A stretch of DNA of 54,387 nucleotides, from the IMG/VR virus record IMGVR_UViG_3300047550_003005, positions 1 to 54,387 of that record, one strand, 5' to 3'. This DNA is from a virus. Its lineage: Duplodnaviria; Caudoviricetes. Shown piece after piece: positions 8,454 through 42,006 of this stretch. The position numbers and the translations under genes are program-made. The notes under the pieces are model-generated. The model was given only the letters and a program-made list of their open reading frames with translations. It was not told where the DNA came from and did no database searches. How positions within the stretch are numbered: the first letter of the stretch is position 1; every line of letters begins with the position of its first letter.

Positions 8454-10790
8454 ATGCCACTTGTCCCTGGCCTTAGCCCGTCCATTCGTGAGCCCGCCCC
8501 CGAGGCGCCTGAGCTGCCGCCCGGTGAAGAGGTTGTGATCATGGAGGCCGATGAGGCCGCCGATCAGCCCCAGACCGATGACAGCGGCAACATCCTCTCC
8601 ATTGAGCATCCCGATGGCAGCATCACGGTGCGGATTGATGGCCAGCCCCTGGAGCCTGCCGGTGGCAAAAAAGAAACCGGCTGGTTTGATAACCTCGTTG
8701 ATCAAATCCCGCAGGCAGAGCTTTCACGCATTAGCGAAGACCTGTTGCGCGGCATCCGCGATGATCTGCAAAGCCGCAGCGAATGGATTGAAGATCGCGC
8801 CACCGGCTTGAAACTGCTTGGCCTGAAGATCGAAATCCCCAGCCTTGCTGGCGCTGCTGACGGTGCGCCGGTCGAAGGCATGTCGAAGGTGCGGCACCCG
8901 TTGCTGCTGGAAGCCGTGCTGCGCTTTCAGGCTAATGCGCGGTCTGAGCTGCTGCCGACCGATGGCCCGGTGAAAATCCGCAACGACGATAACGACCCCA
9001 GCCTGCAAGAAGATGAGCTGGCGAATGCATTGGAGCGCGACCTCAACCACTACCTGACGGCGGTGGCGACCGAGTATTACCCCGACACTGACCGCATGCT
9101 GCTGATGCTTGGCTTCGGCGGCTCTGCGTTCAAGAAGGTGTACTACTGCCCGCTGCGCAATCGTCCCGTTTCCGAAACGGTTGATGCCGATGATCTGATC
9201 GTGAATAACGGCGCGACTGATTTGCAGAACGCCAAGCGCATCACGCACCGCACGTTCCTGAAGCCCAGCGTGGTGAAGCGCCTGCAAATCTTGGGCGTGT
9301 ATCAAGACACTGATCTCAGCACACCAAACCCGCACAGCCTTGATAGCCTTCAGCGTGAAGAGAAGACGCAGGAAGGCATCTCGCCGGATGTCATGAACCC
9401 TGATGACCGGGATCGTGAAATCTATGAATGCTACTGCGAGCTGAACATTCAGGGCTTCGAGCATACCTACAAAGGCAAAGAGACTGGCCTGGAAATTCCG
9501 TATCGCGTGACCATTGATGCATCTTCGAAGAAGATACTTTCGGTGGTGCGCAACTATGACGAAGACACTGCCGAGCTTCCTGAAGCCCGCAGCAATTTCG
9601 TCAAGTACACCTTCATGCCCGGCTTTGGGTTTTACGATATTGGGCTGCTTCATATCCTTGGCAACACGACAAACGCGGTGACGGCTGCATGGCGCGAGCT
9701 TTTGGACGCTGGGATGTACGCAAACTTTCCGGGTTTCCTGTTCGCAGACGCAGGCGCGAGGCAAAACACAAACATCTTCCGTGTGCCTCCGGGCGGCGGC
9801 GCCCTGGTGAAGACCAATGGCATGCCGATCCAGCAGGCGATCATGCCGCTGCCGTACAAGGAGCCCAGCCAAGCCCTGATGGGGTTGGTGCAGAACATCG
9901 TTGAGACTGGGCAGCGCATTGGCGGCGTGAGCGAGATGATGGTTGGCGAGGGGCGCGCTGATGCGCCGGTTGGCACCACGCTGGCGATGATTGAACAGGC
10001 GCAGAAGATTCTGAATTCTGTCCATAAGCGCATGCATGCTGCCCAGGCGCAGGAATTCCAATTGCTGGCCGAATGCTTCCGCGAGAACCCTGAGAGCTTC
10101 TGGCAGCGCAAGCGCAAGAATGCCTATCCGTGGGATGAGCAGCGCTTCCTGCAAGCCCTGGACAATGCAGAGCTGGTGCCGCAGGCTGATCCCAACACCG
10201 CCAGCCACACGCAGCGCCTGATGAAGATCATGGCGCTGAAGCAGCTTCAGCAGGCGCAGCCGGGGCTGTACGACCCGATTGCGATTGATACGGCGGCCTT
10301 GCAGGCTATTGGCTGGAATAACCCTGAGCAATTCTTTGCGCCGCCTGACGCACAGGGCAAGCCGCCGCCTGAGCTGATGAAGGCGCAGGCCGAGCTTCAG
10401 ATCAGGAAGCAGGAAGCCGACATTAAGGGCATGGAAGCCCAGGCGCGGGCGCAGAAGATGCAGGCTGACACGGCGCTGGAGGCCCAGCAGTTTGAGGCCA
10501 ATCAGGCCATGCATGAGCAGCGCATGGGCTTGGATGTGTCTAAATTCCAAGTGCAGACTGGCCTTGAAGAGCGGGCCATGGGGGCAAAGACCGATGAAGC
10601 TATCGCCCGTGAACGCCTCCAGCTCATTGATCTGGCGCAGAACCTTGCAGTGCATCCAGAGAGCGCGCCGGTTGTGGCGCCGCTTGTGCGTCCTGCCTTC
10701 CAGGCTGTCACGGAGCGCGAGCTAGAGGAGAGGGCGCGGCGCGGTAATCTGCCGCCGCTGCCAGGGCTTGGGGGAGCGTTGCCGCAATGA
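8454..10790 (+). CDS. Portal protein (P22-like, long C-terminal coiled coil)
   Basis: Follows terL; HPLLLEAVLRFQA, GFYDIGLLH, APVGTTLAMIEQ motifs; Gln-rich helical tail; GAGGGAG RBS. Confidence 0.9.
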   Translation: MPLVPGLSPSIREPAPEAPELPPGEEVVIMEADEAADQPQTDDSGNILSIEHPDGSITVRIDGQPLEPAGGKKETGWFDNLVDQIPQAELSRISEDLLRGIRDDLQSRSEWIEDRATGLKLLGLKIEIPSLAGAADGAPVEGMSKVRHPLLLEAVLRFQANARSELLPTDGPVKIRNDDNDPSLQEDELANALERDLNHYLTAVATEYYPDTDRMLLMLGFGGSAFKKVYYCPLRNRPVSETVDADDLIVNNGATDLQNAKRITHRTFLKPSVVKRLQILGVYQDTDLSTPNPHSLDSLQREEKTQEGISPDVMNPDDRDREIYECYCELNIQGFEHTYKGKETGLEIPYRVTIDASSKKILSVVRNYDEDTAELPEARSNFVKYTFMPGFGFYDIGLLHILGNTTNAVTAAWRELLDAGMYANFPGFLFADAGARQNTNIFRVPPGGGALVKTNGMPIQQAIMPLPYKEPSQALMGLVQNIVETGQRIGGVSEMMVGEGRADAPVGTTLAMIEQAQKILNSVHKRMHAAQAQEFQLLAECFRENPESFWQRKRKNAYPWDEQRFLQALDNAELVPQADPNTASHTQRLMKIMALKQLQQAQPGLYDPIAIDTAALQAIGWNNPEQFFAPPDAQGKPPPELMKAQAELQIRKQEADIKGMEAQARAQKMQADTALEAQQFEANQAMHEQRMGLDVSKFQVQTGLEERAMGAKTDEAIARERLQLIDLAQNLAVHPESAPVVAPLVRPAFQAVTERELEERARRGNLPPLPGLGGALPQ

Positions 10791-13700
10791 ACCACGATCC
10801 GCGCAAGGCTATTCGTCAAGCCATGATGATTGCGCGGCGCGAGGTGACTGCGCCGAATAAGGCTTCAATTGGTGGTCAGCGGCATATGCTGGCTTACATC
10901 ACGCCTTATGAGGCAGAGCTTCTGATGCGGCGAGGTGGCTCTGGCCGCCTGACTGAATATGGTGTGCCTGCGTTTGATGATGGTAATGGCAATGGCCCTG
11001 GCGGTGGTCCTGGTAATGACTCCAATACAGACACTGCGATGTCTGATCCAAATACGCAAACAGCTACATCAGGAAATGAAGGCACTGGCGCGGGACCTAC
11101 AGGGGCTGGTGCTGGGGGTATTGGAGAGACTGGCCCTGACGAAACTGACGCCAATTTAAGTGGGCCTGTTGCCGCACCTGTGCCTACTGCGCCGACCGCT
11201 ACTGTGCCATTTGGCACTCCTCCTTTTGGCCAAGCGCCTTCAGCTTTAGGTCTGGGCCTTATTGGCGGTCTTGCCGGGCTTGGTTTTGGTGTGCCGGGTC
11301 TTGGTACTGCGGCAGCAGGGATTGGCGCGGCTATTGATGCCAACAACCTGAATGAGCAGCTTGGCATGATGGGCTTGGAACAAAATATTGATGCTCAGTT
11401 GGCCGCAGTAAATGCTATGACCATGGGCGCATTTGGCAGGGGTGCAGCGGAACAATTTGGGCAAACGCTGGGCTTTGATGCGCTTGCAGAAGCGCCGATG
11501 TCTGCGTTTAGCCCGCCACAAGACCTTCCTGGCCCTCCTGCTGATACGAGTAACCCGCCCCCTTATTATGTTGATGTGAAGGCTCCGAAACAGCCGGTTA
11601 TGCAAGCGGATGAAGAAGCGCAACGTGATTTGCTTGCCGCGCGCAATCCGATGCAGCAGCCTTTGATGTATGCTGATGGCGGTGCTGCAACAGGTGGCCG
11701 CATGGACCCGCGCATGCTGCCGGGCATTCATGTGCGTGTTCCTCATGATCGTGTTGGCCGTGCTGACGGTGGCCCGGTGCAGCAGCCGCAGGATGAGGAT
11801 GTGCGGATTGATGACCCGATCATTGGGTATCATGGCACCCCGCATGAATTTGAGCGCTTTGATCCGAGCAAGATTGGCACGGGTGAAGGCGAGCAAATGT
11901 ATGGGCATGGGCTGTATTTTGGCGAACAAGAAAATACTGCAAAATATTACAAAGATAGAATTTCAACTGAAGCTGGCAAGGCTAGGTTACTTGATGCCCG
12001 TGGCAACGAAATTGCCTTAAGTAATCCTGCAAATGCAGAATTTAAAAAATTTCTAAAAACTTATAGTGGTGGTTTTAGGTGGGGTGATGTTAATCACCAT
12101 GTTGAGGCACTAAAAAGAAAATCAGCGACTTTAGATGACGACATCAATTCTATTGATGAAATGCTTCGCACCCATAATTGGGCAGGCATTGAAGACACAC
12201 AAAAATATTGGCAAAACGAATTAGAAAAAAAGATACAGCAAAAACCTACAATTTTAGAATTCACAAATGCTTTAGAGAAAGCTCAAAGGATAGAGCCTAT
12301 TGGTCATATGTATGAAGTGGCTATCCATGCGCGTCCTGAAGAGTTTATGGATTGGGATAAACCGTTAAGCCAGCAAAACCAGCGTGTTCGTGATTTTTTC
12401 AAGCAGCGCGGATTTGATAAGGATTTCACAACTCCGCGCGGTTATACTCAAATTGGGGGTGATGTTTATATTGATGCAGCCGTCCGTGCTTCAGGCTCAA
12501 AAAGCGGTTTTGCCCTTCCTGCCGACAGAAAAAAGCTATCAGAAGATATGTTGGCAGCGGGCATTCCTGGCATCAAATACCTTGATGCTGGCAGCCGTGA
12601 TGCTGGTCAAGGCACCCGCAACTACGTTGTGTTTCATCCCAAGCACCTGGAAATCAAGCGCCGCTATGCCGATGGCGGTGAGATCACGCCGCCGCGCGAT
12701 CTGGGGGCTGATCCCACGGTGCAGCAGGCGCTGCGCCTATCCAGCCGGGTCACTGATAAGCGCACCCCGCAGCTTCAGGATGCCGCTGATCTGATTGCTG
12801 CTGGTCAGATGGGGCCGGAAGAATATCATGCCCTGGTGGGCCAGTATAAGCCTGTGCAGCCCTATACCAACGTGCCACCGATGGCTTCAGAGGCTGACTT
12901 GTTCCGTGGCTTGAGCGAAGATAAGCACGGCAAGGTTGGAGCAGAAAAGAATATTCCAGAAGGCCATCCGGTTGGTTTGCGGCTTGATATCCCCGCCTAT
13001 GATCGGCATGGCGTCTGGGCGCCTACCATCCATGATGGGCATGGCGATAAAGCCAAAGCAATTGCCCACGCACCCTTTGCCCATGTTTCTGATCCCGTCT
13101 TCAGCGTGTCCGAAAACAAGGCGCTGAATGTTGCTAGAGGCACAGCCAAATCGCCATTTGCCAAGATCAATGGCTTTTGGAAGCCAACATCTCCCGAAGA
13201 TGCCCAGGCGATGGCGCAGGAATATCTATACCATCCTGAATGGCGACAGGTCGGCATGGACCCGGAGCGGCATAGCTTCTTCTATGACCGTGAAACCCGC
13301 CAGCCGATTGTAAGCGCGGATGAGGCTTTGCAGGTAGGCCCGTTGGTGCTGGCGAAGAACCCTAAATACGGCAAGGTGACTGATTACAAGTACGCCATTG
13401 GCGGCGGTGTTGATGATGATCCCACGGTGCAGCAAGCGCTTTCCTATACCAGGAAAGTGACCCCGATGGGGTTTTACAGTCATGCTGCTGATGTTGCGGC
13501 CAATCTGCCGCAGCAAAAAGGCACACCGCAGCAGATGCTTTCAATGCTGACTGCGCGTGGCGTTAAGCCGGATGAAATCAATAATTCCGGCGCGCAAGAC
13601 ACATTTGGAAATCAAAAGACCGTGGCCAAGCAGGATTTAGCCGCGCATTTCCAGCAAAACATGCCTGACATTCAGGAACAGAAACGCATACCCAAGCCGT

Positions 13701-16129
13701 CATGGGAGCGTTTAGAGGCATCAAATCATGACCCCGAAATTTATGCGGCTGCTGCTTTTCCAGCTAAATTTTTTGAATGGACAATGGCTTATATGGAGGA
13801 TAAAAATCCAGAAGATATTGATTATCGTGAAATATTACTTCATTCGCAGCCCCATTGGAATGAAAATGCAATAAATGATTGGCTTGAAACTCAAGCTTAC
13901 AATAAAGCGTCTGATTTTGGCGCCATAAGCTCAACAGACGATTGGAATAATCTTCCTGAAAATGAAAAAAATAAATTCACAAAGGACGCAGAACAAAGAC
14001 TTAATTATCTAAAAACTACACTAGACTTCAAAAATAGGAGCGAAAGAAGTGCGCTTTTAGACCCGGATAAAAATTTCTTCAGCACCCATTGGGCTGTGCC
14101 AAATGTAATTGGCCACATTCGCATGCATGACAGGGATGGTGAGGATACGCTGCACGTTGAAGAATTGCAGAGTGATTGGGGGCAGGCCAAGCGTAATGGT
14201 GAGGATGTTCCTGAGCATCCGTTGATCAACAACACAAACACCTGGACCGATCTTTTGCTGAAGCGCGTTTTGCGTGAGGCGGCTCGTCGTGGATATAAGC
14301 GCATTGCTTGGACACCAGGGCAGGAGCAGGCGGAAAGGTACGACCTGAGCCAGCAAATTCATCAATTAAATTATGATCCAGAAGATAAAGTGCTTTCCTA
14401 TTATCATAAGGATCGCGGATGGGATGATCTTCCATATCGCGTTAATCCTGATGAAATACAAAAATATGTTGGGAAAGAGATTGCTAAAAATCTGCTTTCA
14501 CAACCACCAAGCCCATTGAATGGAAGCCATTCCCTAGAAATAAACACGCAAGTCGGCGGCGAAGGCATGAGGGCCTATTACGACAAAATCGTTCCCGCGC
14601 GCATGACGGAAATAACAAAAAAGCTTGGCGCCCCCGTTAAGGTAGAGCCGTACAAAATAAATACCCGAGATGGCGAAAAAACATTACATTCAATTGTGGT
14701 GACGCCGGAGCTAAAATCTGCGGTGTTGAAAGGAATGCCAGTGTACAAAGATGGCGGCAGAATTGGCTACGCTGATGGCGGCATGCCGGGCGATGATCCC
14801 ACGGTGCAGCGGGCGCTGGACATTACGCGGCAGGCGCAACCTGAGCAGTCTCCCATTCCTGGGGCCATGCAGGTGGCTCAGACGGTGGCAGCTCCAGGCC
14901 GCAGGCGCTTTGAGATCGCCCCGGCGCGTGTAGCGCCGATGACAATTGATCAGAAGGACCGCGATCTTCCAGAGGAAGGCAGCGTCACCATCAAACGCCT
15001 CACCGATGCCTTTAAGAAGGCGATTGATAACCACCTGTCACTGCCGCCTGCGCAGCAGATCGCTAATGCCCGGCAGGCTGAAAACAATGTGGCGCAATAT
15101 GTAGGGCGCGGGAAAACCGGCAAGATCAATTCCGTTCTGACCGCCAACAAGAAGCTGATGAAGGCGCAGACGGCTGGGGAAGATGACACCCCACTGATGC
15201 TGCCTGATGGCCGTACACTTGAGATGACCGGGCTGGCGTTGATGCCAGATTACCGGGAAGGCCAGTTTAAGATGTGCGGCAACTCTGATGTCTGCCGTGA
15301 TTCTTGTCTGGGTAAAGAATCAGGACAGTATCGGTATGATCCGACTGAAACCCAAGCCCAGATGCCGATGACGCAAGAAGAATTGGCTGCTGCTGGTGGC
15401 AAGCCCCGCATGGCTGCTTTTCGCCGCACTCAGGCGATGATGCGTGATCCTGAAAGCTTTGCCGTCTATCTGCATGAATTGATTGATGGTGCGAAGATCA
15501 TGGCGGAAAAGCGCGGCGCGCATCTTGGGGTGCGCCTCAATGTGCTTTCTGATTTGTCGCCAAAGATCATGGAGCCGATTATCAAGGCCCATCCAGAAGT
15601 TTCTTTCTATGACTACACCAAGATGAATTATGACCCGGTGGCGCCAAACCACCATTATACCTATTCATCCACGGGGTTGTCGCAGCCGGATCGTGGGGTT
15701 GAAAACCCCTACTCAAACTGGCGCAAGATGCGGGATCGTTTGGATCAAGGGCATAATGTCGCGATGGCATTTGCTCATGGGAAAAGTGATGCCTTCCCAG
15801 AGTATTTGCATGATGAAGAAACTGGGAAGAAGTATCGTGTTGTTTCTGGTGATGAGCATGACTTCCGCCCCTTGGACATGGTGCCAGAGGGGGAAGACGG
15901 CGTGATCATTGCGCTGAAGAACATGGCTGCCAGCAATTCCGAATACAAATATGAGAATGCCGCGCGCAATTCTCACGGTTTTTTTGTTCACCATGAGCCC
16001 GATTTTGAGCGCACCCCCGAAGGGACTTTTTCCCGAAATGAAAATGGGAATCGCATTTCCCGCAATAAAGTTTATACTGTTCGTACCCAACCTATGAAGC
16101 GTGGCGCCGTGCGCCAGCAGGAGAATTGA
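10787..16129 (+). CDS. Large polyvalent virion/cargo protein: ART-PolyVal-like ADP-ribosyltransferase + two unknown domains + GP88-like domain
   Basis: YHGT...FD...GTGEG..YGHGLYF...NYVVF (ART); HVEELQSDW domain; Cx5Cx3C...RLNVLSD...FYDYTK (GP88-like); domains separated by [YR]ADGG-type linkers. Confidence 0.8.
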   Translation: MNHDPRKAIRQAMMIARREVTAPNKASIGGQRHMLAYITPYEAELLMRRGGSGRLTEYGVPAFDDGNGNGPGGGPGNDSNTDTAMSDPNTQTATSGNEGTGAGPTGAGAGGIGETGPDETDANLSGPVAAPVPTAPTATVPFGTPPFGQAPSALGLGLIGGLAGLGFGVPGLGTAAAGIGAAIDANNLNEQLGMMGLEQNIDAQLAAVNAMTMGAFGRGAAEQFGQTLGFDALAEAPMSAFSPPQDLPGPPADTSNPPPYYVDVKAPKQPVMQADEEAQRDLLAARNPMQQPLMYADGGAATGGRMDPRMLPGIHVRVPHDRVGRADGGPVQQPQDEDVRIDDPIIGYHGTPHEFERFDPSKIGTGEGEQMYGHGLYFGEQENTAKYYKDRISTEAGKARLLDARGNEIALSNPANAEFKKFLKTYSGGFRWGDVNHHVEALKRKSATLDDDINSIDEMLRTHNWAGIEDTQKYWQNELEKKIQQKPTILEFTNALEKAQRIEPIGHMYEVAIHARPEEFMDWDKPLSQQNQRVRDFFKQRGFDKDFTTPRGYTQIGGDVYIDAAVRASGSKSGFALPADRKKLSEDMLAAGIPGIKYLDAGSRDAGQGTRNYVVFHPKHLEIKRRYADGGEITPPRDLGADPTVQQALRLSSRVTDKRTPQLQDAADLIAAGQMGPEEYHALVGQYKPVQPYTNVPPMASEADLFRGLSEDKHGKVGAEKNIPEGHPVGLRLDIPAYDRHGVWAPTIHDGHGDKAKAIAHAPFAHVSDPVFSVSENKALNVARGTAKSPFAKINGFWKPTSPEDAQAMAQEYLYHPEWRQVGMDPERHSFFYDRETRQPIVSADEALQVGPLVLAKNPKYGKVTDYKYAIGGGVDDDPTVQQALSYTRKVTPMGFYSHAADVAANLPQQKGTPQQMLSMLTARGVKPDEINNSGAQDTFGNQKTVAKQDLAAHFQQNMPDIQEQKRIPKPSWERLEASNHDPEIYAAAAFPAKFFEWTMAYMEDKNPEDIDYREILLHSQPHWNENAINDWLETQAYNKASDFGAISSTDDWNNLPENEKNKFTKDAEQRLNYLKTTLDFKNRSERSALLDPDKNFFSTHWAVPNVIGHIRMHDRDGEDTLHVEELQSDWGQAKRNGEDVPEHPLINNTNTWTDLLLKRVLREAARRGYKRIAWTPGQEQAERYDLSQQIHQLNYDPEDKVLSYYHKDRGWDDLPYRVNPDEIQKYVGKEIAKNLLSQPPSPLNGSHSLEINTQVGGEGMRAYYDKIVPARMTEITKKLGAPVKVEPYKINTRDGEKTLHSIVVTPELKSAVLKGMPVYKDGGRIGYADGGMPGDDPTVQRALDITRQAQPEQSPIPGAMQVAQTVAAPGRRRFEIAPARVAPMTIDQKDRDLPEEGSVTIKRLTDAFKKAIDNHLSLPPAQQIANARQAENNVAQYVGRGKTGKINSVLTANKKLMKAQTAGEDDTPLMLPDGRTLEMTGLALMPDYREGQFKMCGNSDVCRDSCLGKESGQYRYDPTETQAQMPMTQEELAAAGGKPRMAAFRRTQAMMRDPESFAVYLHELIDGAKIMAEKRGAHLGVRLNVLSDLSPKIMEPIIKAHPEVSFYDYTKMNYDPVAPNHHYTYSSTGLSQPDRGVENPYSNWRKMRDRLDQGHNVAMAFAHGKSDAFPEYLHDEETGKKYRVVSGDEHDFRPLDMVPEGEDGVIIALKNMAASNSEYKYENAARNSHGFFVHHEPDFERTPEGTFSRNENGNRISRNKVYTVRTQPMKRGAVRQQEN
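12709..14817 (+). repeat. Three dispersed 24-bp repeats encoding DPTVQ[Q/R]AL
   Basis: TGATCCCACGGTGCAGCrrGCGCT at 12709-12732, 13417-13440, 14794-14817. Confidence 0.9.
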
Positions 16130-16130: not shown

Positions 16131-16391
16131 ATGAAGAAGCCGCCGCCGATCAATCAGCTTCACCCTGAAGATCACATTCAGCAGTTTCACAATGCCCATA
16201 TGTTTGAAGATAATGGGGATCACCCCACCGCATTGGGGTCTGTGCTGCGTCATGGCCATTTGCTGGCTTCTGGCGGCACGGTGACATCCCCTGTTGTAGA
16301 TCGGGCTTTGAAGAAGACCGCACCAGACCGGCCTATGGTTGCCTTGGCCGACCTCTTCCAAAGGCAACTGCGGGGACGCCCGCCCTCCTAG
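16131..16391 (+). CDS. Small hypothetical protein with LASGG + PVVDRAL motif
   Basis: AGGAGA RBS; contains the same linker pattern as the polyvalent protein. Confidence 0.65.
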
Positions 16392-23369: not shown

Positions 23370-23675
23370 ATGAAGGGTCGTAAGGGTCGCGCGGCTGGTG
23401 GTGAGTCCCCGGCTGCTGGTTCCAAAGAATGGGAACAGGACTTGGCTTCCAAGCCGGAACGCCGCGTCAATGCTGCCACCATCATGAATGCCGCTGAAGA
23501 GCGCAAGCGTGGTGGTAAGGCTGTTGGTAAGGTGCATGGCGTTGCTGCCAAGATGCATGCTGGCCGCAAGGCTCGCAAGGCTGGTGGCAAGGTGGGTTCC
23601 AACATGAACCCGCTCTCCAGCGCGCATGCTGGCACCCCTGCCAAGGGCCGCAAGCTCGATAGCATGGGTCAGTGA
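23370..23675 (+). CDS. Small basic protein with three x-x-x-G-G motifs
   Basis: RAAGG, RKRGGK, RKAGGKV; AAGGAGG RBS. Confidence 0.75.
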   Translation: MKGRKGRAAGGESPAAGSKEWEQDLASKPERRVNAATIMNAAEERKRGGKAVGKVHGVAAKMHAGRKARKAGGKVGSNMNPLSSAHAGTPAKGRKLDSMGQ

Positions 23676-23678
23676 TTG

Positions 23679-23707
23679 GTGGGGGCTTCGGCCCCCATCT
23701 TTCCTTT
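23679..23707 (+). terminator. Intrinsic terminator (cUUCGg loop)
   Basis: GGGGGC-TTCG-GCCCCC core identical to 21127-21142, followed by ATCTTTCCTTT. Confidence 0.65.
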
Positions 23708-23717
23708 GGAGGGGATC

Positions 23718-30659: not shown

Positions 30660-31379
30660 ATGACCACAGGTTTGACGTATAGCCAGTATGTGAGCGAGAT
30701 CGCCACCCTTGCGGTTGTGCCTTCTGACGACCCCAATTTCGTGGAAATCCTGCCGCAGATGATCACCTATGCGGAAAACAGGATTTACCGCGATTTGGAC
30801 CTGCTGGAGACTGTCACCGCGATAAGCTCCTACACAACCGCCCTAAATGGCCGCACGGTCACTTTCCCGATTGCTGACTTCATCACGGTGCAGGAGGTGA
30901 ATGTCATCACCCCTGCTGGCACCACCATCCCTGACAATGGCACCAGGACGGCCCTGCTGCCCGTGACCAAGGAATGGATGAATTACAACTACGTCAGCAG
31001 CGCATCGGCGGCGGTGCCGTACTATTTCGCGATGTTCAACCAGAACACGATCATCCTTGGCCCCTGGGCGGATGACACCTACACCATCGAAATTGTGGGG
31101 ACGTTCCGCCCGGATTCGCTGTCTGCGTCCAACACTTCTACCTTTGTGTCGCTCTATCTGCCTGATCTGATGATCATGGCTTCCATGATTTATATCAGCG
31201 CCTTCCAGCGCAACTTCATCTCGGCGGCAGCCAATGACCCGCAGATGCCGGTCAACTATGAGACTCAGTATCAGACTTTGCTGAAGGGGGCGATGGTTGA
31301 AGAGGCGCGTAAGAAGTTCCAATCGGCTGGCTGGACTTCCATGTCGCCTGCTCCTGTGGCTTCGCCGACCAGAGGATAA
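30660..31379 (+). CDS. Tail/head-completion adaptor protein
   Basis: AENRIYRDL, P.Y.AM, GP.AD..Y.IE, N..T..S.Y.PDL motifs. Confidence 0.65.
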   Translation: MTTGLTYSQYVSEIATLAVVPSDDPNFVEILPQMITYAENRIYRDLDLLETVTAISSYTTALNGRTVTFPIADFITVQEVNVITPAGTTIPDNGTRTALLPVTKEWMNYNYVSSASAAVPYYFAMFNQNTIILGPWADDTYTIEIVGTFRPDSLSASNTSTFVSLYLPDLMIMASMIYISAFQRNFISAAANDPQMPVNYETQYQTLLKGAMVEEARKKFQSAGWTSMSPAPVASPTRG

Positions 31380-33854: not shown

Positions 33855-34412
33855 ATGCCATTGAAGCGCGGCAAATCGCAGAAGACGATTTCTTCTAATA
33901 TCAGGGAGATGATCCATGCCGGGCATCCGCGTGATCAGGCCATTGCTGCCGCGCTGAATATTGCCAGGAAGAAGGCTGCCGAAGGCGGCATGCGCCTTGG
34001 TGTGGACAACCCACAGCCTGAGAAAATCCATGTGGGGCCGATCCACAGCGCGGTGGCCGGGCGTACTGATCACCTGCCGGTGCATGTGGCGTCTGGCTCT
34101 TATGTGATCCCGGCAGACATCATTTCGGCCATGGGCGAAGGCAATTCCATGGCTGGCTTTAAGGTTTCAGACCGTATTTTTCGCGATCCAGAGGGGGATC
34201 GTGAGCCTCACAAGAACCCTGCTTTTGCTGACGTAGAAACGGTTCCTGTGGTTGTAGCGGGTGGGGAATATATCATCAGCCCGCAAGATGTAATTCACCT
34301 GGGTGGTGGCTCGATGGAGGACGGGCATCGGATGCTGGATGAATTCGTGAAACAATACCGGCAGAAGACCATTAAGACCCTCCAGGCTTTGCCGGGACCA
34401 AAGAAGGATTGA
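33855..34412 (+). CDS. Conserved protein with AAEGG and two GE/S[Y]V-type modules
   Basis: MPLKRGKSQKTISSNIRE...QAIAAAL; GRTDHLP...SGSYVIPAD..S..G.G; AGGEYIISP.DV..LG.G. Confidence 0.75.
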   Translation: MPLKRGKSQKTISSNIREMIHAGHPRDQAIAAALNIARKKAAEGGMRLGVDNPQPEKIHVGPIHSAVAGRTDHLPVHVASGSYVIPADIISAMGEGNSMAGFKVSDRIFRDPEGDREPHKNPAFADVETVPVVVAGGEYIISPQDVIHLGGGSMEDGHRMLDEFVKQYRQKTIKTLQALPGPKKD

Positions 34413-34418: not shown

Positions 34419-34907
34419 ATGTCCGAAGATATTAGGGTCCGAATTGCCACGCCTGATGATGTCCATGATCTCATGGAATTGGCGATGCTTGCTTGTGATG
34501 AAAACGGGTTTGTGAACCCAAACCCGGTGAAGCTTTTGAACGAGATTTACCCGGCTTTAACCCTGCAATCTGGTATTGTGGGGGTTATTGGGAAGGCGGG
34601 TGAAAAGCCCGAAGCGGCCATTCTGCTTCGGGTCGGGAATGTCTGGTACTCAGATAATCCCGTCCTTGAGGAGCGGGCGATCTTCGTCCATCCTGATTTC
34701 CGTAGCGCGAAGGGTGGCAGGGCTGCCAAGCTCTGCAAGTTCGCCAAGGAAACGTCTGATAAATTGGGTTTGCCCCTGATGATTGGTGTGTTAAGTAATG
34801 ACCGTACTGCGGCCAAAATCCGCATGTATGAACGTCAATTTGGCTCGCCTTCGGGGGTGTACTTCCTGTATCAAGCCCAAACAGGGGGCTGGAAAGAGGC
34901 ATCATGA
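34419..34907 (+). CDS. GNAT-fold protein (internal virion/assembly protein)
   Basis: VRIATPDDV, IFVHPDFRSAKGG; directly upstream of ejection genes. Confidence 0.7.
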   Translation: MSEDIRVRIATPDDVHDLMELAMLACDENGFVNPNPVKLLNEIYPALTLQSGIVGVIGKAGEKPEAAILLRVGNVWYSDNPVLEERAIFVHPDFRSAKGGRAAKLCKFAKETSDKLGLPLMIGVLSNDRTAAKIRMYERQFGSPSGVYFLYQAQTGGWKEAS

Positions 34908-37900
34908 GCGGTGGTGGTAAGAGCAGCACAAGTACCTCCTCGGTATCCATCCCGCCAGAGGTTTTGGCCCGGTATAATGCGGTAAATGCTCGCGCCGAGC
35001 AGGTCGCGCAGCAACCTTTCACGCCGTATGGCGGGCAGTTTGTCGCTCCTCTTACCCAAACGCAGCAGGCTGGCATTTCCAATGTCAGCCAAGCCGCTGG
35101 CGCCGCGCAGCCCTATTATCAGGCTGCCGGTACGGCGTTGCTTGGCGGTGCAGCGCAGGCCCAGCCTTATTATCAGGCGGCTACCCAAGACATCTATGGC
35201 GGTCAGGCGGCTGCCGCGCCGTTGCAGGCTGCGGCGGCCCAGAACATCGCTGGCGCCCAGGCTGCTGCCCAGCCTTATCAGGGCATGGCCACCGGATTTG
35301 GCCTTGCTGGTGCGCGGCAGATCGCGCCGGGCGGCTTGAATGTCGGCGCCTATATGTCGCCCTATACCGAGGCTGTGGCGCAGCCCACCTATCAGGCTTT
35401 GCGGCAGCAGCAGGAGCAAGAGCGCCAGCGGATGCTTGGTGAGCAAATCCGTGGCGGTGCCTTTGGTGGTGATCGCGGGCGGATTGCCCAGGCTAATTTG
35501 GCCCAGCAGCAAAACCTTGCCACCGCCCAGGCGTTGGGGAACATTTACCAGCAAGGCTATGGGCAGGCGCTTGGCGCGGCCCAGCAGCAGCAGGGCGTGG
35601 CTTTGCAGGCCGAGCAGGCCAACCGGCAGGCGCAGCAGCAGGCCGCCCAACAGTTCCTCGGCATTGGCCAGCAGGCATTTGGCCAGGGGGCGCAGACTGC
35701 CCAGCAGCAGGCGGCATTGGGCCAGCAGCTATTTGGCCAGGGCGCCCAGGCTGCCCAGGCGCAGCAGGCGCTTGGGCAGGGGCTGTATGGCATTGGGGCT
35801 GGCGTCAGCCAGGGGCTGGCCGGGCTTGGCACTGGCGCGCAGCAGGCAGCCTTGCAGGGCGGTCAGGCGCAGCTTGCGGCTGGTACGGTGGAGCAGCAGA
35901 CCCAGCAGGCGCAGAATCAGGCGCTGTACAACCAGTTCTTGCAGCAGCAGGGCTACCCGTTCCAAGTGGCGCAGTTCCTGGCGAACATCGCCATGGGTAC
36001 GGGCGCGCTGTCTGGATCGACCACGACCACCACGCAGCCTTCATCGTTCTTCTCGGATGAGCGATTGAAGCATGATATTGAGCCCATCGGTAAGACCTTT
36101 GATGGTCAGGACATCGTGCGGTTCAAATACAAGGGCGAGCCCGGCACCCGGATCGGCCTTGTGGCGCAGGATGTTGAGAAGAAGCATCCAGAGGCCGTGG
36201 GGCTGGCTGGCGGCTACAAGACGGTAGATTATGACGCCGCGACCGATGAGGCCGCCGCACGGGCTCCTAAAGCCTATGGTGGCGGTCTGAATCCGTGGGA
36301 TGGCAATTCCATGGGTGGTGGCGTGTTCCGTGAGGATGCTGGTCAGGGGTTTGCTGCTGGCGGTGCGCCGGGTGGTGATGATGTCCTGGCGCAGATCAAT
36401 GCGCTGGTGAATGCCCATCAGGGCATGTTCCCGTATGGCAAGGCGGGCCTGTACGGCGGCGGCATGGGGAAGGCTGGGCCTTATGGTTCCACGCTGATGC
36501 AGGCGCCTAGCCGTAATTTACTGACAGCACCAGCACCTCGGCAGCAGGCTCCTTATGATGTGCGGCAGGCCATGCGCGATGTTGGTGATATCGCAGGCAT
36601 GCCTGAGCGTATCCAGAAGGGTTATGCCGGTGCCAAGGCAGGTTTGGTTGGTTCTCCTGGACAGACCACCACGACGACCAGCCCTTCCGGCCAAACCACC
36701 ACACAGACAACGCCATCCTCTGGCGGATTGGCTGGCGAGGGCGGCAGATTGCAATGGCAGGGAAGCTGGGGGCAGCAGTTTGTTGAGGGCGCCCGCGAAG
36801 CTGCGCAGGATGTTGCTGCTGCTTTCGGTTATGCTCATGGCGGCACTATTCGTCCAGGCTTTTCTGTTGGTGGTTTGCCGTATAGCCAAGCAACTGACGA
36901 ATATGTCCCCGAAGATATCAGCAAACCTATTACTCCTGGTAAACTTGAAGCCCCAAAACCGGGTGGGCAACAATCTAATGATGGCAAACAGCTTTTGGAT
37001 TTTGCAAAAACTGCTGCGGCAATTTATGGCGCTGGCGCGGCCACCGGAGGCGCAATTCGGCGCCATTATGAAGATGGCGGATTTGCCGACATAGGCAATT
37101 ATGGTGGTTTTGGTGGTGATAATTATGAGGGTGGTTTAAGCCCGCAAAAATTTGAAACGCCAGATTCTCGTCCCTCTTCAATTCTTGATCAAAAGGATGG
37201 CAAAAACGACAAAAACAATACCTCATCCGCACAAATTAATCCGGGTGTGCTGTCGCCAAGCGCGGGTGGTCATTATGATCCCAGTAAAGATGATGCGCAA
37301 ACTGCGGCATCATTGGCAGCTATAGCTGCTGCGGTTATGCTTTCTGATCGCGGGTTGAAAGAAAACATTGAGCCTATCGGCAAACTTTTTGATGGACAAA
37401 ATGTGTATCGCTACAATTTCAAGGGTGACGACAAAAAGCAAATTGGCTTGATGGCGCAGGAGGTTGAGAAGAAATACCCTGATGCTGTTGGGCTTGCGCC
37501 GCGCAAGGGGTATCAGCAGGGCGGTGGCCCGAATGTTCCTGAAGCGTATCAATCCATTGTTGAAGAGGTGGCGCGCGAAAGGGGCGTTCCGCCGCATATT
37601 CTTGGCGCTGTTCTGCGTCATGAATCTGGCTTCAATCCTGAAGCGCGTGGGCAGGCTGGAGAAATCGGCCTGGGGCAGATTTTGCCCAGCACAGCGCGCA
37701 GGCCAGGGTTTGGCCTTAATCCTGCGACCGAAGAAGAATTGCGCGATCCTCGGCGCAATATTGATTTCTCTGCCTCTTATATTGCGGCCCGCAATCCGAA
37801 TGTTGATTGGTCCAATCCAGTCGCGGCGGCGCGGGCTTTGGCTACCAATTACAATGCCGGTGGTGATCCCAATTATGCTGAAAAGGTCATCCGCTATTTC

Positions 37901-39700
37901 CCTGGTGTGACTGAAGAGCAGATCGCTGAAGTGCGCGCTCGCGCTCCTCAAGGTGCTGCTGCATCTGCCGATGATTTGACGCGGCTTGCTGGGCCGCCGC
38001 GCCAGCAGCGCGGTCTTGTGAGGATGGAACGCCCGGCGCCGGATTGGATGCAACGCAATCAATCCTGGTTTGTCCCGGCATTGGCCGGTCTTGCAGGCAT
38101 GGCGTCTTCTCCAAGCAGGTATCTAGGCTCTGCTGTCTTGCAGGGGCTTGGGACGGCTGCTGAAACCTATGGCGGCATGCAGGCGCGCTTTGAAGAGCAA
38201 CAGCGCGCCCGTGAGCAGACTGGCATCCAGGCGCAGCAAGCAGCCACCGCAGAGCGGCGTGTGGATGTTGAAGAGTCCTTGCGGAACCTTCAGCTCTTGC
38301 AGCGCTTTGAAGCCATGTATGAACGGCGCCTTGGTCCCGACAATCGTGTCTTCTACCTTGACAAGGCAACTGGCCAGCAGATCAGCCTTGAGGAATACAA
38401 CAGGCGGTATCGGCAAATGCTTGGCGCGCTTACTGGCGGCGGGTCAGGTGTTGGCGCTGTTGCTGCCAGTCGGGCTCCTGGCGCCTCTGAAGCCCCTGCT
38501 GCTGGGCGTCCTGGTGAAGTGCCTGTCCCTGGTGCCGCACCTGCTGAACAGCCCGCAACGCCGCCAGCAGAGGGGGCTACCGAAGGTAGGCGTGAAGCTC
38601 CTGCTGCCCCTACAACGCAGCCTCAGACGCCGCCGCCTGCTCCTGGGCAACGTGCTGAACCGGCATCACCATATGCAAGTTCAACAGCGCAGCGCAGGCT
38701 TGAGGGGTTTGATTATTCTGTGCTTCGGAATGAAGACAATCCTCAATGGATTGATGAGCAAATCCGCGCGAAGCGCGCCAGGATTGCCGCGCTTCGGACT
38801 GAAGGAACGCAGCAGGCGCTTAATGAAATCCCTGGCTTGGAAAGCGAAGTTAAGGATTACCAGCAGCGCGCAGATAGGATCATTGGTGGTGAAATTGTTC
38901 CTCGCAACAGGGACAACACGCTGAATGAGCAGTTCCGTCAGCTTGCTGTTGAACGTGCGCAGGATGCCAAGTTTGTTGAGAGCTTGGCTGAATCTCGCAC
39001 CAATCAATACAACCGAGCCAATTCTTTTGTTTCGACGGAATATCCTGTTGCGCGCGGGCTGATAGATCAATTGACGCAGATTTATCAGAATGTGCAAACA
39101 AACCGTGGTTCTGAGGCGCTCGCGCAATTGGTCGGGCTTGGTAGCCAACTGCCTTGGCTTGGTCCTGTGATCCAAGAGCGGTTTGGTGATTTGCAGGCTG
39201 CTGTTGATGCGGGCAATAAAACTGCAATTGAGCAGGCATTCTCAAAGATTGCTGAGTCTGGCGCGCAGCGCGCTCCTGGTACGGCATTAAGAGAAGCGCT
39301 TTTGACAGTGGCGCAGCCTGGGATGTCGCCAGACGCTCGGTACATTGTCATCACCAACACGCTCGCCAATTTGGAGCGTGAGAATAAGCAATACCGCGAT
39401 TGGCTTGATGCCGGTATGCCGGAACCGGCGGCATTTAATGCTCGCTGGACGGCTTCAGGTGATAACGATCTTTCTGTCTTCCAGCGGCAGGCTGTTTCTC
39501 GGACCCCGCGTTTCGCTGGCATGACGGAAGGCGCACGACCGCTGATCCGTGGTGGTGAGCCTGCTGCTGCACCTGCTGCGCCTAGGCGGGTAGCGACAGA
39601 AGCAGACATCAACGCAACCTTGGCGGCAAACCCAGGAATGACACGCGAACAGGTAATTCAGCGCGCACGTTCCATGGGATATGAAGTGGGAGGCGAATAA
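34904..39700 (+). CDS. DNA ejection/pilot protein with two Peptidase_S74 (intramolecular chaperone) domains and a lytic transglycosylase domain
   Basis: GGGK+ST-rich N-terminus, Q/A/G tract; SDERLK..GLVAQDVEK..P.AV..VDY and SDRGLK..GLMAQEVEK.YPDAV; HESGFNP...GLGQI (SLT). Confidence 0.85.
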   Translation: MSGGGKSSTSTSSVSIPPEVLARYNAVNARAEQVAQQPFTPYGGQFVAPLTQTQQAGISNVSQAAGAAQPYYQAAGTALLGGAAQAQPYYQAATQDIYGGQAAAAPLQAAAAQNIAGAQAAAQPYQGMATGFGLAGARQIAPGGLNVGAYMSPYTEAVAQPTYQALRQQQEQERQRMLGEQIRGGAFGGDRGRIAQANLAQQQNLATAQALGNIYQQGYGQALGAAQQQQGVALQAEQANRQAQQQAAQQFLGIGQQAFGQGAQTAQQQAALGQQLFGQGAQAAQAQQALGQGLYGIGAGVSQGLAGLGTGAQQAALQGGQAQLAAGTVEQQTQQAQNQALYNQFLQQQGYPFQVAQFLANIAMGTGALSGSTTTTTQPSSFFSDERLKHDIEPIGKTFDGQDIVRFKYKGEPGTRIGLVAQDVEKKHPEAVGLAGGYKTVDYDAATDEAAARAPKAYGGGLNPWDGNSMGGGVFREDAGQGFAAGGAPGGDDVLAQINALVNAHQGMFPYGKAGLYGGGMGKAGPYGSTLMQAPSRNLLTAPAPRQQAPYDVRQAMRDVGDIAGMPERIQKGYAGAKAGLVGSPGQTTTTTSPSGQTTTQTTPSSGGLAGEGGRLQWQGSWGQQFVEGAREAAQDVAAAFGYAHGGTIRPGFSVGGLPYSQATDEYVPEDISKPITPGKLEAPKPGGQQSNDGKQLLDFAKTAAAIYGAGAATGGAIRRHYEDGGFADIGNYGGFGGDNYEGGLSPQKFETPDSRPSSILDQKDGKNDKNNTSSAQINPGVLSPSAGGHYDPSKDDAQTAASLAAIAAAVMLSDRGLKENIEPIGKLFDGQNVYRYNFKGDDKKQIGLMAQEVEKKYPDAVGLAPRKGYQQGGGPNVPEAYQSIVEEVARERGVPPHILGAVLRHESGFNPEARGQAGEIGLGQILPSTARRPGFGLNPATEEELRDPRRNIDFSASYIAARNPNVDWSNPVAAARALATNYNAGGDPNYAEKVIRYFPGVTEEQIAEVRARAPQGAAASADDLTRLAGPPRQQRGLVRMERPAPDWMQRNQSWFVPALAGLAGMASSPSRYLGSAVLQGLGTAAETYGGMQARFEEQQRAREQTGIQAQQAATAERRVDVEESLRNLQLLQRFEAMYERRLGPDNRVFYLDKATGQQISLEEYNRRYRQMLGALTGGGSGVGAVAASRAPGASEAPAAGRPGEVPVPGAAPAEQPATPPAEGATEGRREAPAAPTTQPQTPPPAPGQRAEPASPYASSTAQRRLEGFDYSVLRNEDNPQWIDEQIRAKRARIAALRTEGTQQALNEIPGLESEVKDYQQRADRIIGGEIVPRNRDNTLNEQFRQLAVERAQDAKFVESLAESRTNQYNRANSFVSTEYPVARGLIDQLTQIYQNVQTNRGSEALAQLVGLGSQLPWLGPVIQERFGDLQAAVDAGNKTAIEQAFSKIAESGAQRAPGTALREALLTVAQPGMSPDARYIVITNTLANLERENKQYRDWLDAGMPEPAAFNARWTASGDNDLSVFQRQAVSRTPRFAGMTEGARPLIRGGEPAAAPAAPRRVATEADINATLAANPGMTREQVIQRARSMGYEVGGE

Positions 39701-42006
39701 TGTCTGGGCGCAATTTGTTTGCCGAAGAGCTTCCTGCTGCTGAATCTCCCCCCGCTGATGGGCGTAATTTATTTGCTGACACAACCCCGGCGCAAAGGTT
39801 TGAGCAGCAAATTCAGGAGCGCATGCCTGCTGCAAGACAGCGCCAGGAAACCATGGGATATCGGCTGCCGGATGTCGAAATCCCAGTTCTCACCCCGCTT
39901 ATGGAGCGTGGCACATCTGCCATTTTGGCTGCTGCAAGAGGCCCTGAAGGCACCACTTTTGGGGAGCGGTATTCTTCTGAGCTTGCCGCCAGGGAAGCTC
40001 AAAAGCGCGCCTATCAGGAAGCAAACCCGGCACTTGCAGCGGCGGGCCAAGTGGGCGGCGCCCTGGCGACATTGCCGATCTTCCCCACGTTGGCCGCTCC
40101 GCGTGTTGCGGCGGCAGTGCAGCCTGCATTGAATGTTGCCAGTCGATATGTGCCACAGGCTGTTGCTGATGCGGCATCAGCGGCTGCCCGGTATGTCCCA
40201 GGTTTCATTTCCAGGCCCACTCAGGCGGTGGGGCGCGCGGCGGTTCCTGTTGGGCTTGCGGCGGCAGAAAGTGGCCTTTACGGTGCTGCTGAAGAGGCTG
40301 CGAAGCTTGTTCCTGGGGAGAGCCTGGGTGATATTGCTGAACGTGCAAAAGAAGGCGGCGAATTCGGTGCTTTGCTTGGTGGCGGATTGCGCGCTGGTTT
40401 AGGCGCCCTGGGTGCCGGTTATGGCGCGGTCAGGAATTACATCAATCCGCAGCGTGAAATTGCCCAAAGGGCTCAAACTTCTGCCTTGGGTAAAGGGCAG
40501 ATGACAATGGAAGAATTTGAACAGGCGGCGGCTCGCGGGCTTCCTGTTTCTATTGCTGATCTTCCTGGTGGCCGCGCCATGGTGGAAGGCGCCTTGGGGC
40601 GCGTTGAAAGGTCTGAAGCTCCGACAGCGCAAAAGCTGCAAGAATTCTTTCAGACCCGGCAGGCAGAAGCCACAAATACCACTCGGCAGCAGATCGACAA
40701 TATTTTTGGCCGCCCCATTGAGCCTGCTGCTTTGGTGCGGGAAGCTGAAGATGTTGCCCGCGCCGCAAATGCTCCTGCATATCGTGCTGCCTATTCTCAA
40801 CCTATTGCCCAGCATGTTTGGAATGATGAGCTTGCGCAATTTTTGCAGCATCCAGAAGGGCAAAAAGCAGCACGAAAAGCTATTGATGCCTTGTCATTGA
40901 GAAGCCAAACGCCGGGTGGATTTACAAATCCTTTCATCAGGCAAAATGGTCAGATTGTTTTTAGTGGTCAAGGTAATGTGCCGCTAGAATTCTGGGATCG
41001 GTTCCGCCGCTCTTTGCGGGATGAAGCTGAAGAATTGTATCGGCGCGGTCGATCTACTGATGCTGGAGATTTGACCAATTTCAAAAATCAATTGCAGGGG
41101 TATTTGACGACTAATTTTGTGCCTTATCGGCAAGCTGTTGAAGGCGCCGGGAAGTACCTGCGCGCAGATAATGCCTTTACTGCTGGTGAAGAATTTTTCA
41201 GAGAAGCATCAAAAGGGAGGCAGGCCGACACTCGGTATGTTGGCAATCAGATGTATCAATTTGCCAATAAGTTTTCTCCTGAAGAGCAAAATATGTTCAG
41301 AACGGGGCTTGCTGCTTATATCAGGACAAATCCTGATGATGCGGCGAAGGTATTTGCCTCCCGTGATGCCGGTATTTTGAACCAATACAGGGCAATTCTT
41401 GGCGCTGATAAATTCAAAGACATTCAATCGGCCATGCTCGCCCATGGTGCGGCGAGGAATATTCGTGGGATTGTGGCCGATCCAAGCAGGGTCACGCAAT
41501 TTGCTGAAAAGGTCGGCCAATTTGGTGGCCTTGGTTCTCTTGGTTATGCAATTGCGAGTGGATCACCAGTCAGTGTGTTTCATGTCCTTGCTTCTTTGGG
41601 TGTAAGCGGTGGTGCCGCGCTTTCGAACATGATGGGCAATGCCCGCGCCCGGCAGATATTGCGGCTGGCTATGTCTGATGATCCGCAAGATGCGGCGCGG
41701 TTGGTCAGTATGGCCAGAAGCCAGCCTGCCGTGGCCAACATTCTTGATGAGATCAATTCAGCATCATCTCGTGCTGTCATGGCGTTAAATGATCAAAGTG
41801 CGCCGCCACCTCGCCGTGCCGGTGGCCGCGTGGGCCGGGCATCCGGTGGGCGTCTGATGCGGAATGATCATTCTGCCAGGGCTGCCGCGCTGATAAGGGC
41901 TGCGGAAGCCGCCAAGAAGGCGCATAATGCCACCACGGAGGGCATCCTTGAGCAGCCGGATGAGGCTGTGGCCAAGGCGCTTTCTATCGCAAACAAAGCT
42001 ATTTAA
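39700..42006 (+). CDS. DNA ejection (internal virion) protein
   Basis: Ala/Gly-rich hydrophobic segments, GRNLFA x2, TAATG overlap; C-terminal RAGG/RASGG. Confidence 0.7.
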   Translation: MSGRNLFAEELPAAESPPADGRNLFADTTPAQRFEQQIQERMPAARQRQETMGYRLPDVEIPVLTPLMERGTSAILAAARGPEGTTFGERYSSELAAREAQKRAYQEANPALAAAGQVGGALATLPIFPTLAAPRVAAAVQPALNVASRYVPQAVADAASAAARYVPGFISRPTQAVGRAAVPVGLAAAESGLYGAAEEAAKLVPGESLGDIAERAKEGGEFGALLGGGLRAGLGALGAGYGAVRNYINPQREIAQRAQTSALGKGQMTMEEFEQAAARGLPVSIADLPGGRAMVEGALGRVERSEAPTAQKLQEFFQTRQAEATNTTRQQIDNIFGRPIEPAALVREAEDVARAANAPAYRAAYSQPIAQHVWNDELAQFLQHPEGQKAARKAIDALSLRSQTPGGFTNPFIRQNGQIVFSGQGNVPLEFWDRFRRSLRDEAEELYRRGRSTDAGDLTNFKNQLQGYLTTNFVPYRQAVEGAGKYLRADNAFTAGEEFFREASKGRQADTRYVGNQMYQFANKFSPEEQNMFRTGLAAYIRTNPDDAAKVFASRDAGILNQYRAILGADKFKDIQSAMLAHGAARNIRGIVADPSRVTQFAEKVGQFGGLGSLGYAIASGSPVSVFHVLASLGVSGGAALSNMMGNARARQILRLAMSDDPQDAARLVSMARSQPAVANILDEINSASSRAVMALNDQSAPPPRRAGGRVGRASGGRLMRNDHSARAAALIRAAEAAKKAHNATTEGILEQPDEAVAKALSIANKAI

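Follow-up and report, generated by a model that had tools for sequence, protein, structure and literature searches.

Polyvalent proteins of phages and conjugative elements combine many unrelated effector domains in one polypeptide, are encoded next to virion genes and are believed to enter the host along with the DNA; they are also believed to require processing, which Iyer et al. 2017 (PMC5512222) assign to a built-in MPTase domain. Here we describe a peptide joint, built around a Gly-Gly (GG) motif, in a protein of this type and in several other putative capsid-internal proteins of a tailed phage (Duplodnaviria; Caudoviricetes) known from IMG/VR record IMGVR_UViG_3300047550_003005. Its entire assembly, a single contig of 54,387 nucleotides (nt), was analysed and is called the window below. 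An earlier note on this DNA had reported motifs of the type x-x-x-G-G in at least seven late genes and had taken them for a shared cleavage and/or capsid-loading signal. The window protein resembles the polyvalent class in being multi-domain cargo with an ART-PolyVal domain, but no MPTase domain is detectable in it, and its joint motif divides modules and recurs in other virion proteins. Among polyvalent proteins the MPTase domain is frequent, though not obligatory. The terms 'linker', 'glycine' and 'GG motif' are absent from the main text of PMC5512222.

Polymorphic toxins offer a further comparison: passages of Zhang et al. 2012 (PMC3482391) describe pre-toxin or demarcation motifs at their cassette borders, proposed as processing sites, and diversity arising by recombination. 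The likeness lies in a short conserved motif between a constant part and swappable cassettes. Examples of such demarcation motifs are PT-VENN of CdiA and DPxGL of Rhs. A polymorphic toxin, however, is a secreted protein with a single C-terminal cassette and an immunity gene, whereas the window has arrays of several cassettes in capsid-internal proteins, another motif and a partner helix, and no immunity-like gene is seen after the cassette (an 86-residue tail reading frame and then a basic protein follow; no search aimed at immunity genes was made). The paper on MuF toxins (PMC5576092) makes no mention of linker, junction, recombination or cleavage, and our literature searches found no description of this GG joint motif. 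Polymorphic and polyvalent proteins are known for module-boundary motifs, and the joint is a variant of these that has not been described before.

For the lambda tape-measure protein gpH, passages of PMC12617516 report that a piece of ~14 kDa is removed from the Gly-rich C-terminal region, with site and catalyst not known, and that residues ~690-817 are not resolved structurally. The FATGG and YATGG strings named for gpH in the earlier note are indeed present, at amino acids (aa) 733 and 778; no other [FY]AxGG string occurs in 30 lambda coding sequences (2 against 0.04 in shuffles). gpH has [FY]A-T-G-G twice in the Gly-rich region of a tail-exiting, processed protein, as a likeness to the window; homology, however, is not established, no helix like DUF6496 (see below) was noted and lambda is a siphovirus. 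In T4 the capsid-targeting sequence is a short N-terminal peptide that directs unrelated internal proteins into the prohead, and gp21 cuts at L/I-x-E. Both phages would then have a terminal peptide common to unrelated internal proteins, but the T4 peptide is N-terminal only and accompanied by an encoded prohead protease, whereas here the peptide is found at both ends and internally, and no protease was found. Encapsulin cargo-loading peptides are short, contain Gly, lie on disordered ends and load diverse cargo into an HK97-fold shell; their motif sequence is unlike that of the window.

A two-part joint at module borders

Alignments with related phages show a conserved module boundary and crossover point in proteins that are expected to be capsid-internal or ejected, namely the polyvalent, basic repeat and small basic proteins and three ejection proteins. 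The GG string and a short amphipathic helix together make up a two-part joint. Part one reads [Tyr/Phe/Leu/Met/Arg/Lys]-[Ala/Lys]-x-Gly-Gly and is frequently doubled as GG-R-[I/V]-G-xxxGG; part two, located 1-25 residues from it, reads (D/H)P-x-x-[A/V]-[I/V]-x-x-A-L-x-[I/L]-[A/T/S]-[R/N] (also written DPxVQxAL..R). The helix looks like DUF6496 (PF20106), a family found in P0111, a homologue of the basic repeat protein, at 2e-12 (47.6 bits against a cut-off of 24) with RKSGG on both flanks. The window's own helices gave no DUF6496 match at E up to 10, and seven window stretches of 50-101 aa that hold joints, tails or motifs returned 0 families when scanned with Pfam at E up to 10.

The joint is best seen in the open reading frame (ORF) at 10787-16129 (+ strand, 1780 aa), which begins directly after the SU10-type portal gene (8424-10790) and so lies in a late/virion context. 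The protein strings together at least five modules with joints in between and unites in one polypeptide an ART-PolyVal domain (aa 344-444), a GP88 domain (aa 1453-1699) and matches to phrog_873, phrog_586 and phrog_7348. Pfam gave no match to the zincin-like MPTase domain, either at E up to 0.01 for the full-length protein or at E up to 1 for five pieces of it. Counted at the first G of each GG, its motifs are YADGG (aa 298), RADGG (328), YADGG (630), YAIGG (872) and the pair YKDGG-RIG-YADGG (1323/1331).

All five joints of this protein are on the + strand. At the N-terminal joint (10796..10879) a helix, DPRKAIRQAMMIARR, is followed by ASIGG (GG at aa 29-30), a layout also seen at the post-portal N-ends of relatives. 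Joint 1 (11669..11773; aa 295-329) reads YADGG-AATGG-RMDPRMLPGIHVRV...RADGG and forms the left edge of a cassette that is absent in the related locus L009, while joint 2 (12665..12748; aa 627-654) reads YADGG-x10-DPTVQQALRLSSR, forms the right edge of that cassette and contains DNA repeats D3 and D6; its helix is predicted at a low predicted local distance difference test score (pLDDT). Joint 3 (13391..13456; aa 869-890), YAIGG-GVDD-DPTVQQALSYTRK, lies where 94% identity to a second locus, L007, begins (aa 868). Joint 4 (14744..14833; aa 1320-1349) carries the paired motif, YKDGG-RIG-YADGG-MPGD-DPTVQRALDITRQ, and similarity to both L009 and L007 stops at aa 1351.

These borders coincide with the places where the protein is mosaic. 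In 31 alignments of the window polyvalent protein with 13 relatives, 31 of the 56 internal alignment endpoints fall in the four joint zones, which account for 8.2% of its residues (binomial 1.5e-19, the endpoints not being independent). L009, with a portal identical at 99%, matches the window at 99% over aa 1-300 and at 96% over aa 627-1351; the window has an extra cassette of ~327 aa, ART domain included, exactly between the YADGG at aa 295-299 and the YADGG at aa 627-631. At the corresponding position L009 reads YADGG-AVG-YADGG-MPGD-DPTVQQALRLSSR, and since the locus without the cassette shows the doubled motif, the paired form represents an empty slot for a cassette. In L007 only aa 868-1351 are shared (94%), with joints at both edges; there the ART module is fused straight to the third module, the crossover lying within DPTVQQAL. 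The last module of the window protein, after DPTVQRALD[IV]TR, is unlike that of both L009 and L007. A conserved short motif thus stands at the border of a recombining cassette, in the manner of polymorphic-toxin demarcation. The claim of the earlier note that the motif falls at domain borders is borne out by L009, L007 and the endpoint count. The paired xxxGG-R[I/V/A]-x-xxxGG form that it described is there as well; what it had missed are the partner helix, the link to the mosaic breakpoints and two Peptidase_S74 modules in the protein encoded from 34904.

An AlphaFold2 model of aa 600-1360, built from nine sequences, is of low confidence overall (pLDDT 46.9) but moderately confident in one fold, ~aa 897-1317. 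On either side of this fold the GG motifs are found in segments of pLDDT <50, and every DPTVQxAL is predicted as a helix.

The 86-aa ORF at 16131-16391 (+ strand; motif LASGG) encodes the C-terminal tail that is conserved throughout this polyvalent family and that, in six relatives, closes the long ORF. It lies in the +1 frame, one base past the stop of the polyvalent ORF, with an alternative frame open from 16101, and the separate tail could be due to a split gene, a frameshift or a sequencing error. DNA homology of this ORF to relatives begins at ~16312, inside its helix.

At the DNA level a 16-mer, GATCCCACGGTGCAGC, is common to three joints, where 16-23 nt are identical with synonymous sites included, and three YADGG motifs share TATGC[TC]GATGGCGGTG. 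Such shared DNA would be good microhomology for crossover. Close relatives have near-identical coding DNA at the joints. The 16-mer was found in just 7 of 166 loci, each of them from a close relative, and more distant phages keep the peptide alone. Given that the peptide persists at 64-70% portal identity and in non-mosaic proteins, selection must act on the peptide too. The codons of the motif GG show a slight bias only. We also considered GCTGGTGG, the E. coli Chi octamer: it occurs eight times, on the + strand only (15392, 18067, 18130, 21338, 23394, 23580, 47709 and 52697), against 3.3±1.7 expected on both strands. Judged by position only, five of the eight copies appear to encode Ala-Gly-Gly in motif-bearing proteins, and the octamer was set aside as a DNA-level signal and treated as a by-product.

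Motif carriers in the window and in related phages

Every motif string quoted in the earlier note was found in the sequence, and the enrichment it had asked to see checked against shuffled sequence is present: over 47 ORFs (14,906 aa; 2000 within-protein shuffles) the pattern [FYMLRK][AK]xGG occurs 27 times against 5.68±2.33, with a shuffle maximum of 13. Individually significant are ORF 10787 (6 against 0.62), the basic protein ORF 16339 (10 against 0.94) and ORF 23370 (3 against 0.23). ORF 34904 is not significant by this pattern (3 against 1.07, p=0.10), but with [FY]xxGG it has 7 matches against 1.53 in shuffles (p=0.001). The plain GG dipeptide is only slightly in excess in the same shuffles (171 against 146.8±10.7), so Gly richness by itself cannot account for the excess of the motif. 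Around 145 GG sites the residues are biased to Y at -3, A/K at -2 and I/V at +2. TerL, portal, scaffold and major capsid protein (MCP) lack a motif cluster, as the earlier note had said of the terminase, MCP and replication proteins. Its assignment of the motif to virion cargo is supported, the carriers being proteins expected in the capsid or ejected; one match, FKAGG, in the early ORF 5561-5881 counts against its wording.

The basic repeat protein (16405-18486, + strand; isoelectric point (pI) 10.3) consists of Gly/Pro-rich repeats; the ORF is open for 715 aa from 16339, the true start being at 16405. It was said to have more than 12 motif copies: it has 23 GG dipeptides, but only 10 fit the note's own pattern, and a count above 12 needs a looser residue class. 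No Pfam or PHROG family matches it, and the ESM Atlas gives unnamed viral clusters only. It has 1018 homologues, all unnamed, and the MCP has 7516. Across its family the GG columns are invariant, in 6-14 copies, amid an indel-rich variable chain that is probably disordered, and in some relatives small domains are inserted between neighbouring GG motifs. A short motif to which something binds typically shows up as invariant anchors of this kind. A stretch of 13 residues at aa ~268-285 resembles the C-end of the scaffold, MMGMTAEEYARNK, and may be a coat-binding element like that of the scaffold.

A small basic protein at 23370..23675 (+ strand; 101 aa, pI 11.1) carries three copies, RAAGG, RKRGG and RKAGG. 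Directly 3' of its gene a DUF6321 protein (1e-18) is encoded at 23676-23981; in PHROGs DUF6321 is the C-end of far longer proteins.

Three further carriers belong to the internal/ejection block. The conserved internal protein of 185 aa at 33855..34412 (+ strand) has a helix, HPRDQAIAAALNIARK, followed by AAEGG at aa 41-45; this copy is present as the earlier note had it, but falls outside the note's own residue class. Its family begins with HPxDQAIAAALxxAR and then GG, with G44 invariant and G45 at >=90% (25 sequences), and a second [KR]AxGG is found in 19 of the 25. In the AlphaFold2 model (pLDDT 58.8) the GG begins a disordered stretch after a helical hairpin. An hhalign comparison of this family with the C-end of gpH, in which VPIVAAGGEYVI..IG.G was aligned with PAGIVH-RGEFVF..IGVG, gave a probability of 3.5%; it is non-significant and kept as a lead only. 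The 1598-aa ejection protein at 34904..39700 (+ strand) has a [FY]xxGG cluster at aa 459-873 and an SLT domain at aa 887-987, the quoted strings being KAYGG, FAAGG, YAHGG, FSVGG, YEDGG and YQQGG. The 768-aa ejection protein at 39700..42006 (+ strand) carries RRAGG-RVG-RASGG near its C-terminus (nt 41812-41850), then a helix, AAALIRAAEAAKK, and a terminal helix, PDEAVAKALSIANKAI; the order GG, helix, ..PDEAITKALAIANxAI is found at the C-end of all 22 complete homologues. Sequence searches of the PDB with the 33855, basic and polyvalent proteins returned nothing meaningful.

At least 599 related portal loci were found in IMG/VR, of which 80 were kept and 33, having several kb downstream, were used for counts. 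In these 33 loci the motif occurs 161 times in post-portal polyvalent ORFs (shuffle expectation 23.5±5.1) and 215 times in the basic protein (18.5±4.0), against 4 in the portal (4.4 expected), 7 in upstream genes (5.9) and 0-1 in the scaffold-like, ~205-aa, ~210-aa and MCP classes (0.2-0.4). The motif peptide is retained in relatives with 64-70% portal identity. The closest GenBank phage, MW202675.1 (portal identity 68%), retains it in the homologous proteins, its polyvalent region being divided into three genes. In 28 loci centred on 33855 homologues, the 34904 homologues have 2-9 copies, and most 39700 homologues have 1-2 matches to the broader [FYMLRKH][AKRS]xGG near the C-end; two that miss this pattern have RQSGG and RMSGG at the equivalent place.

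Where modules are fused the joints are internal, and where genes are split they are terminal. N-ends of split relatives follow M..DPxKAIRxAMxIAR-x4-8-[FYLK][AS]xGG and C-ends ..xAxGG-x1-4-[IV]VD[RQ]AL[RS]LTS[RK], often closing with ..RGRP, while at some C-ends GG is followed by HPxLxIPG[VI]HI.... Of 190 motif matches in post-portal ORFs of relatives, 52 are terminal, lying in the N-terminal 50 or C-terminal 60 aa, together 12% of the length; a match is found in the last 60 aa in 31 of 60 post-portal ORFs and in the first 50 aa in 19. The joints stand at both termini of modules that can be exchanged independently of one another.

More distant, cultured phages (Pelagibacter phage HTVC027P, Caulobacter phage RW and Alcaligenes phage QDWS535) do not have the polyvalent and basic proteins and show no motif enrichment. 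A single joint, MAVGG-RVG-YADG-PDDP, at aa ~719-740 of HTVC027P gp42 (L083) suggests that the joint may extend past the clade of the window. When a 51-aa joint was used as a tblastn query, zero matches at E up to 1 were obtained in 50,697 phage records.

Genome setting and the search for a protease

Nearly all late genes of the window are on the + strand. The late block comprises the small terminase (6156-6788) and TerL (6792-8399), followed by the portal, the polyvalent ORF with its tail ORF and the basic repeat protein; then come a GroES-like protein, a scaffold-like protein (19228-20139), the MCP (21934-22848) and the small basic protein. Two SU10-adaptor paralogues are encoded at 24742-25437 and 30660-31379. 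A collagen-like fibre and a nozzle-like protein of 704 aa are listed after the MCP and before the internal/ejection block, in which a GNAT-like protein stands between the 33855 and 34904 genes. At 28051-29628, within the structural block, a protein combining methyltransferase, GT2 and TPR is encoded, and an early DXD-type glycosyltransferase at 4638-5357 has a weak Pfam match to the catalytic domain of large clostridial glucosyltransferases.

In five relatives (L022, L025, L041, L063 and L071) the MCP is 87-98% identical to that of the window, the portal 65-78% and the scaffold 35-53%, a pattern that is indicative of unusually strong constraint on the shell protein. Nucleotides 1-29 of the window are repeated at 54347-54375, 41 nt before the contig end, after which the flanks diverge; this could be a regulatory hairpin repeat or a trace of assembly joining.

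The earlier note had seen no canonical prohead protease, and Pfam agrees (0 of 57 ORFs), as do the PHROG scans (none). Apart from Peptidase_S74, no peptidase family was found by Pfam in the 57 ORFs and the pieces of long proteins, a search in which remote folds can be missed. As the genome is a single contig, no phage-encoded protease is hidden elsewhere. The note had put forward ORF 33855 as the reader of the motif, a role that finds no backing: the protein has no Pfam family and no fold match to its model, and it carries the motif itself. As a protease it is equally unsupported (the best Foldseek hit against the PDB has an E of 3.1), a poor model being unable to exclude it.

Peptidase_S74 is found in the 34904 protein (E 8.9e-20) in two stretches, each with a Ser-x4-Lys arrangement. 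Module 1 (36053..36199, + strand; aa 384-432) has SDERLK at aa 384-389 and module 2 (37343..37489, + strand; aa 814-862) has SDRGLK at aa 814-819, each providing the catalytic Ser and Lys. The two modules predict self-cleavage of the protein into three pieces, for which no GG site would be needed. S74, the intramolecular chaperone of endosialidase and tail fibres, represents a known self-cleavage route for phage polyproteins; it cuts, however, ahead of its own Ser and not at GG, and it is present in one motif-bearing protein only. Its location inside an SLT-bearing ejection protein would be an unusual internal use of a tail-fibre chaperone domain.

Readings of the joint and their meaning

With little more than even confidence we lean to the view that the joint is a flexible connector recognised by a shared partner, aiding both packaging and cassette exchange. 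In this view the GG peptide would be both a hinge and the site that is recognised, with the helix serving for docking; unrelated modules would be packaged via one common interaction and threaded out like beads on a string, while the conserved coding sequence of the joint would double as crossover point for the exchange of cassettes. A shared recognition or docking role is inferred, and likewise a role in capsid loading, and the proposal is compatible with cleavage at GG as well as with its absence.

Several points weigh against this connector. The partner that would recognise it is hypothetical, as is its binding, and since both AlphaFold2 models are of low confidence (pLDDT 58.8 and 46.9), the term flexible partly rests on poor models. 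A passive hinge needs no conserved Tyr/Phe-Ala or Lys-Lys, so that a specific reading of the peptide, possibly by a protease, is still required. At internal joints the helix abuts the next module without an intervening GG, and the layout is therefore not fully symmetric with that at the termini. Breakpoints in the 34904 family lie near GG only loosely, in a Gly-rich stretch, and were given no weight. The related phages are non-independent samples and the regular expression was fixed only after the sequence had been viewed; conservation in relatives serves as the independent check.

It might be argued instead that the motif is a cleavage signal, at which a phage or host protease cuts after Gly-Gly, frees the modules as effectors and sheds the helix tags in the manner of the T4 targeting sequence and gp21. 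At protein ends GG lies between helix and module, which is the layout of a targeting peptide plus cut site, and the conserved residues are on the P5, P4, P2, P1 side; moreover, FATGG/YATGG of gpH lie in the region that loses its ~14 kDa piece (passages of PMC12617516), and polyvalent proteins are thought to require processing (PMC5512222). Nonetheless, only S74 was found as a peptidase in a single-contig genome, and the separate scaffold gene suggests protease-free assembly. P22 and T7, for instance, assemble with a separate scaffold and without a protease. Position P1' is unconstrained and even admits Pro (RADGG-P), and in stand-alone relatives the motif stands 1-3 residues short of the C-end (..FRRGGAV, ..AAKGGVV, ..HARGGVAK), where little would be gained by cutting; given these two observations, cleavage at GG is possible but unsupported. 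In T5, passages of PMC10038345 place the cut in pb2 after Arg1127, which is not a GG site. Overall we consider a cleavage signal unlikely. The same short C-ends, together with the YEVGGE end of the window's 34904 protein, could also suggest an exposed C-terminal Gly-Gly for covalent attachment, i.e. ubiquitin- or Pup-like cross-linking of internal proteins. Yet most motifs are internal, no E1-like, PafA-like or JAB-type family occurs in the 57 ORFs, and a GGE end is seen in 0 of the 25 complete 34904 homologues listed. The ubiquitin/Pup-like GGE end was rejected for this lack of conservation, and attachment of this kind is very improbable.

A different view holds the joint to be a passive linker or recombination scar, kept as a DNA crossover point with a harmless Gly-Gly linker whose peptide is not read by anything. 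The 16-23 nt identical at three joints (synonymous sites included), the crossovers inside DPTVQQAL in L007 and within the helix of the tail ORF, the cassette indel between two YADGG motifs and the merely mild codon bias of the motif GG would fit such a scar. It does not explain, however, why the peptide persists at 64-70% portal identity when the 16-mer is found in 7 of 166 loci only, why the non-mosaic 33855 and 39700 families hold the joint at fixed sites, or why 6-14 GG copies are the only invariant columns of the basic protein; we therefore regard it as very doubtful. That the motif is due to chance or a by-product of Gly-rich composition is scarcely credible: although plain GG is mildly raised and 34904 is non-significant by the note's expression, 0 of 2000 shuffles reach 27, the motif is enriched 7- to 12-fold in relatives and its positions are conserved, by which chance is already refuted.

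A bolder extension, which we hold to be distinctly unlikely, is that the joint serves as an address label in a system for packaging and release not described before, in which a receptor or protease of no known family would read [aromatic/basic]-[A/K]-x-G-G with its helix on every capsid-internal protein, and the same kind of activity would read FATGG/YATGG of gpH. If true, it would make the 50-year-old question of tape-measure processing directly testable. Apart from this extension, FATGG/YATGG are a concrete candidate site for the unmapped gpH cleavage. If the joint is indeed a loading or release signal, it would also be a portable tag by which foreign proteins could be packed into phage heads.

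For the phages themselves, the joint gives a simple sequence rule for locating module borders in large unannotated polyvalent and ejection proteins, applicable to an abundant clade of uncultured phages (at least 599 related contigs in IMG/VR). Effector cassettes of such proteins are gained and lost by crossover in the conserved joint coding sequence, a doubled motif marking the empty slot.

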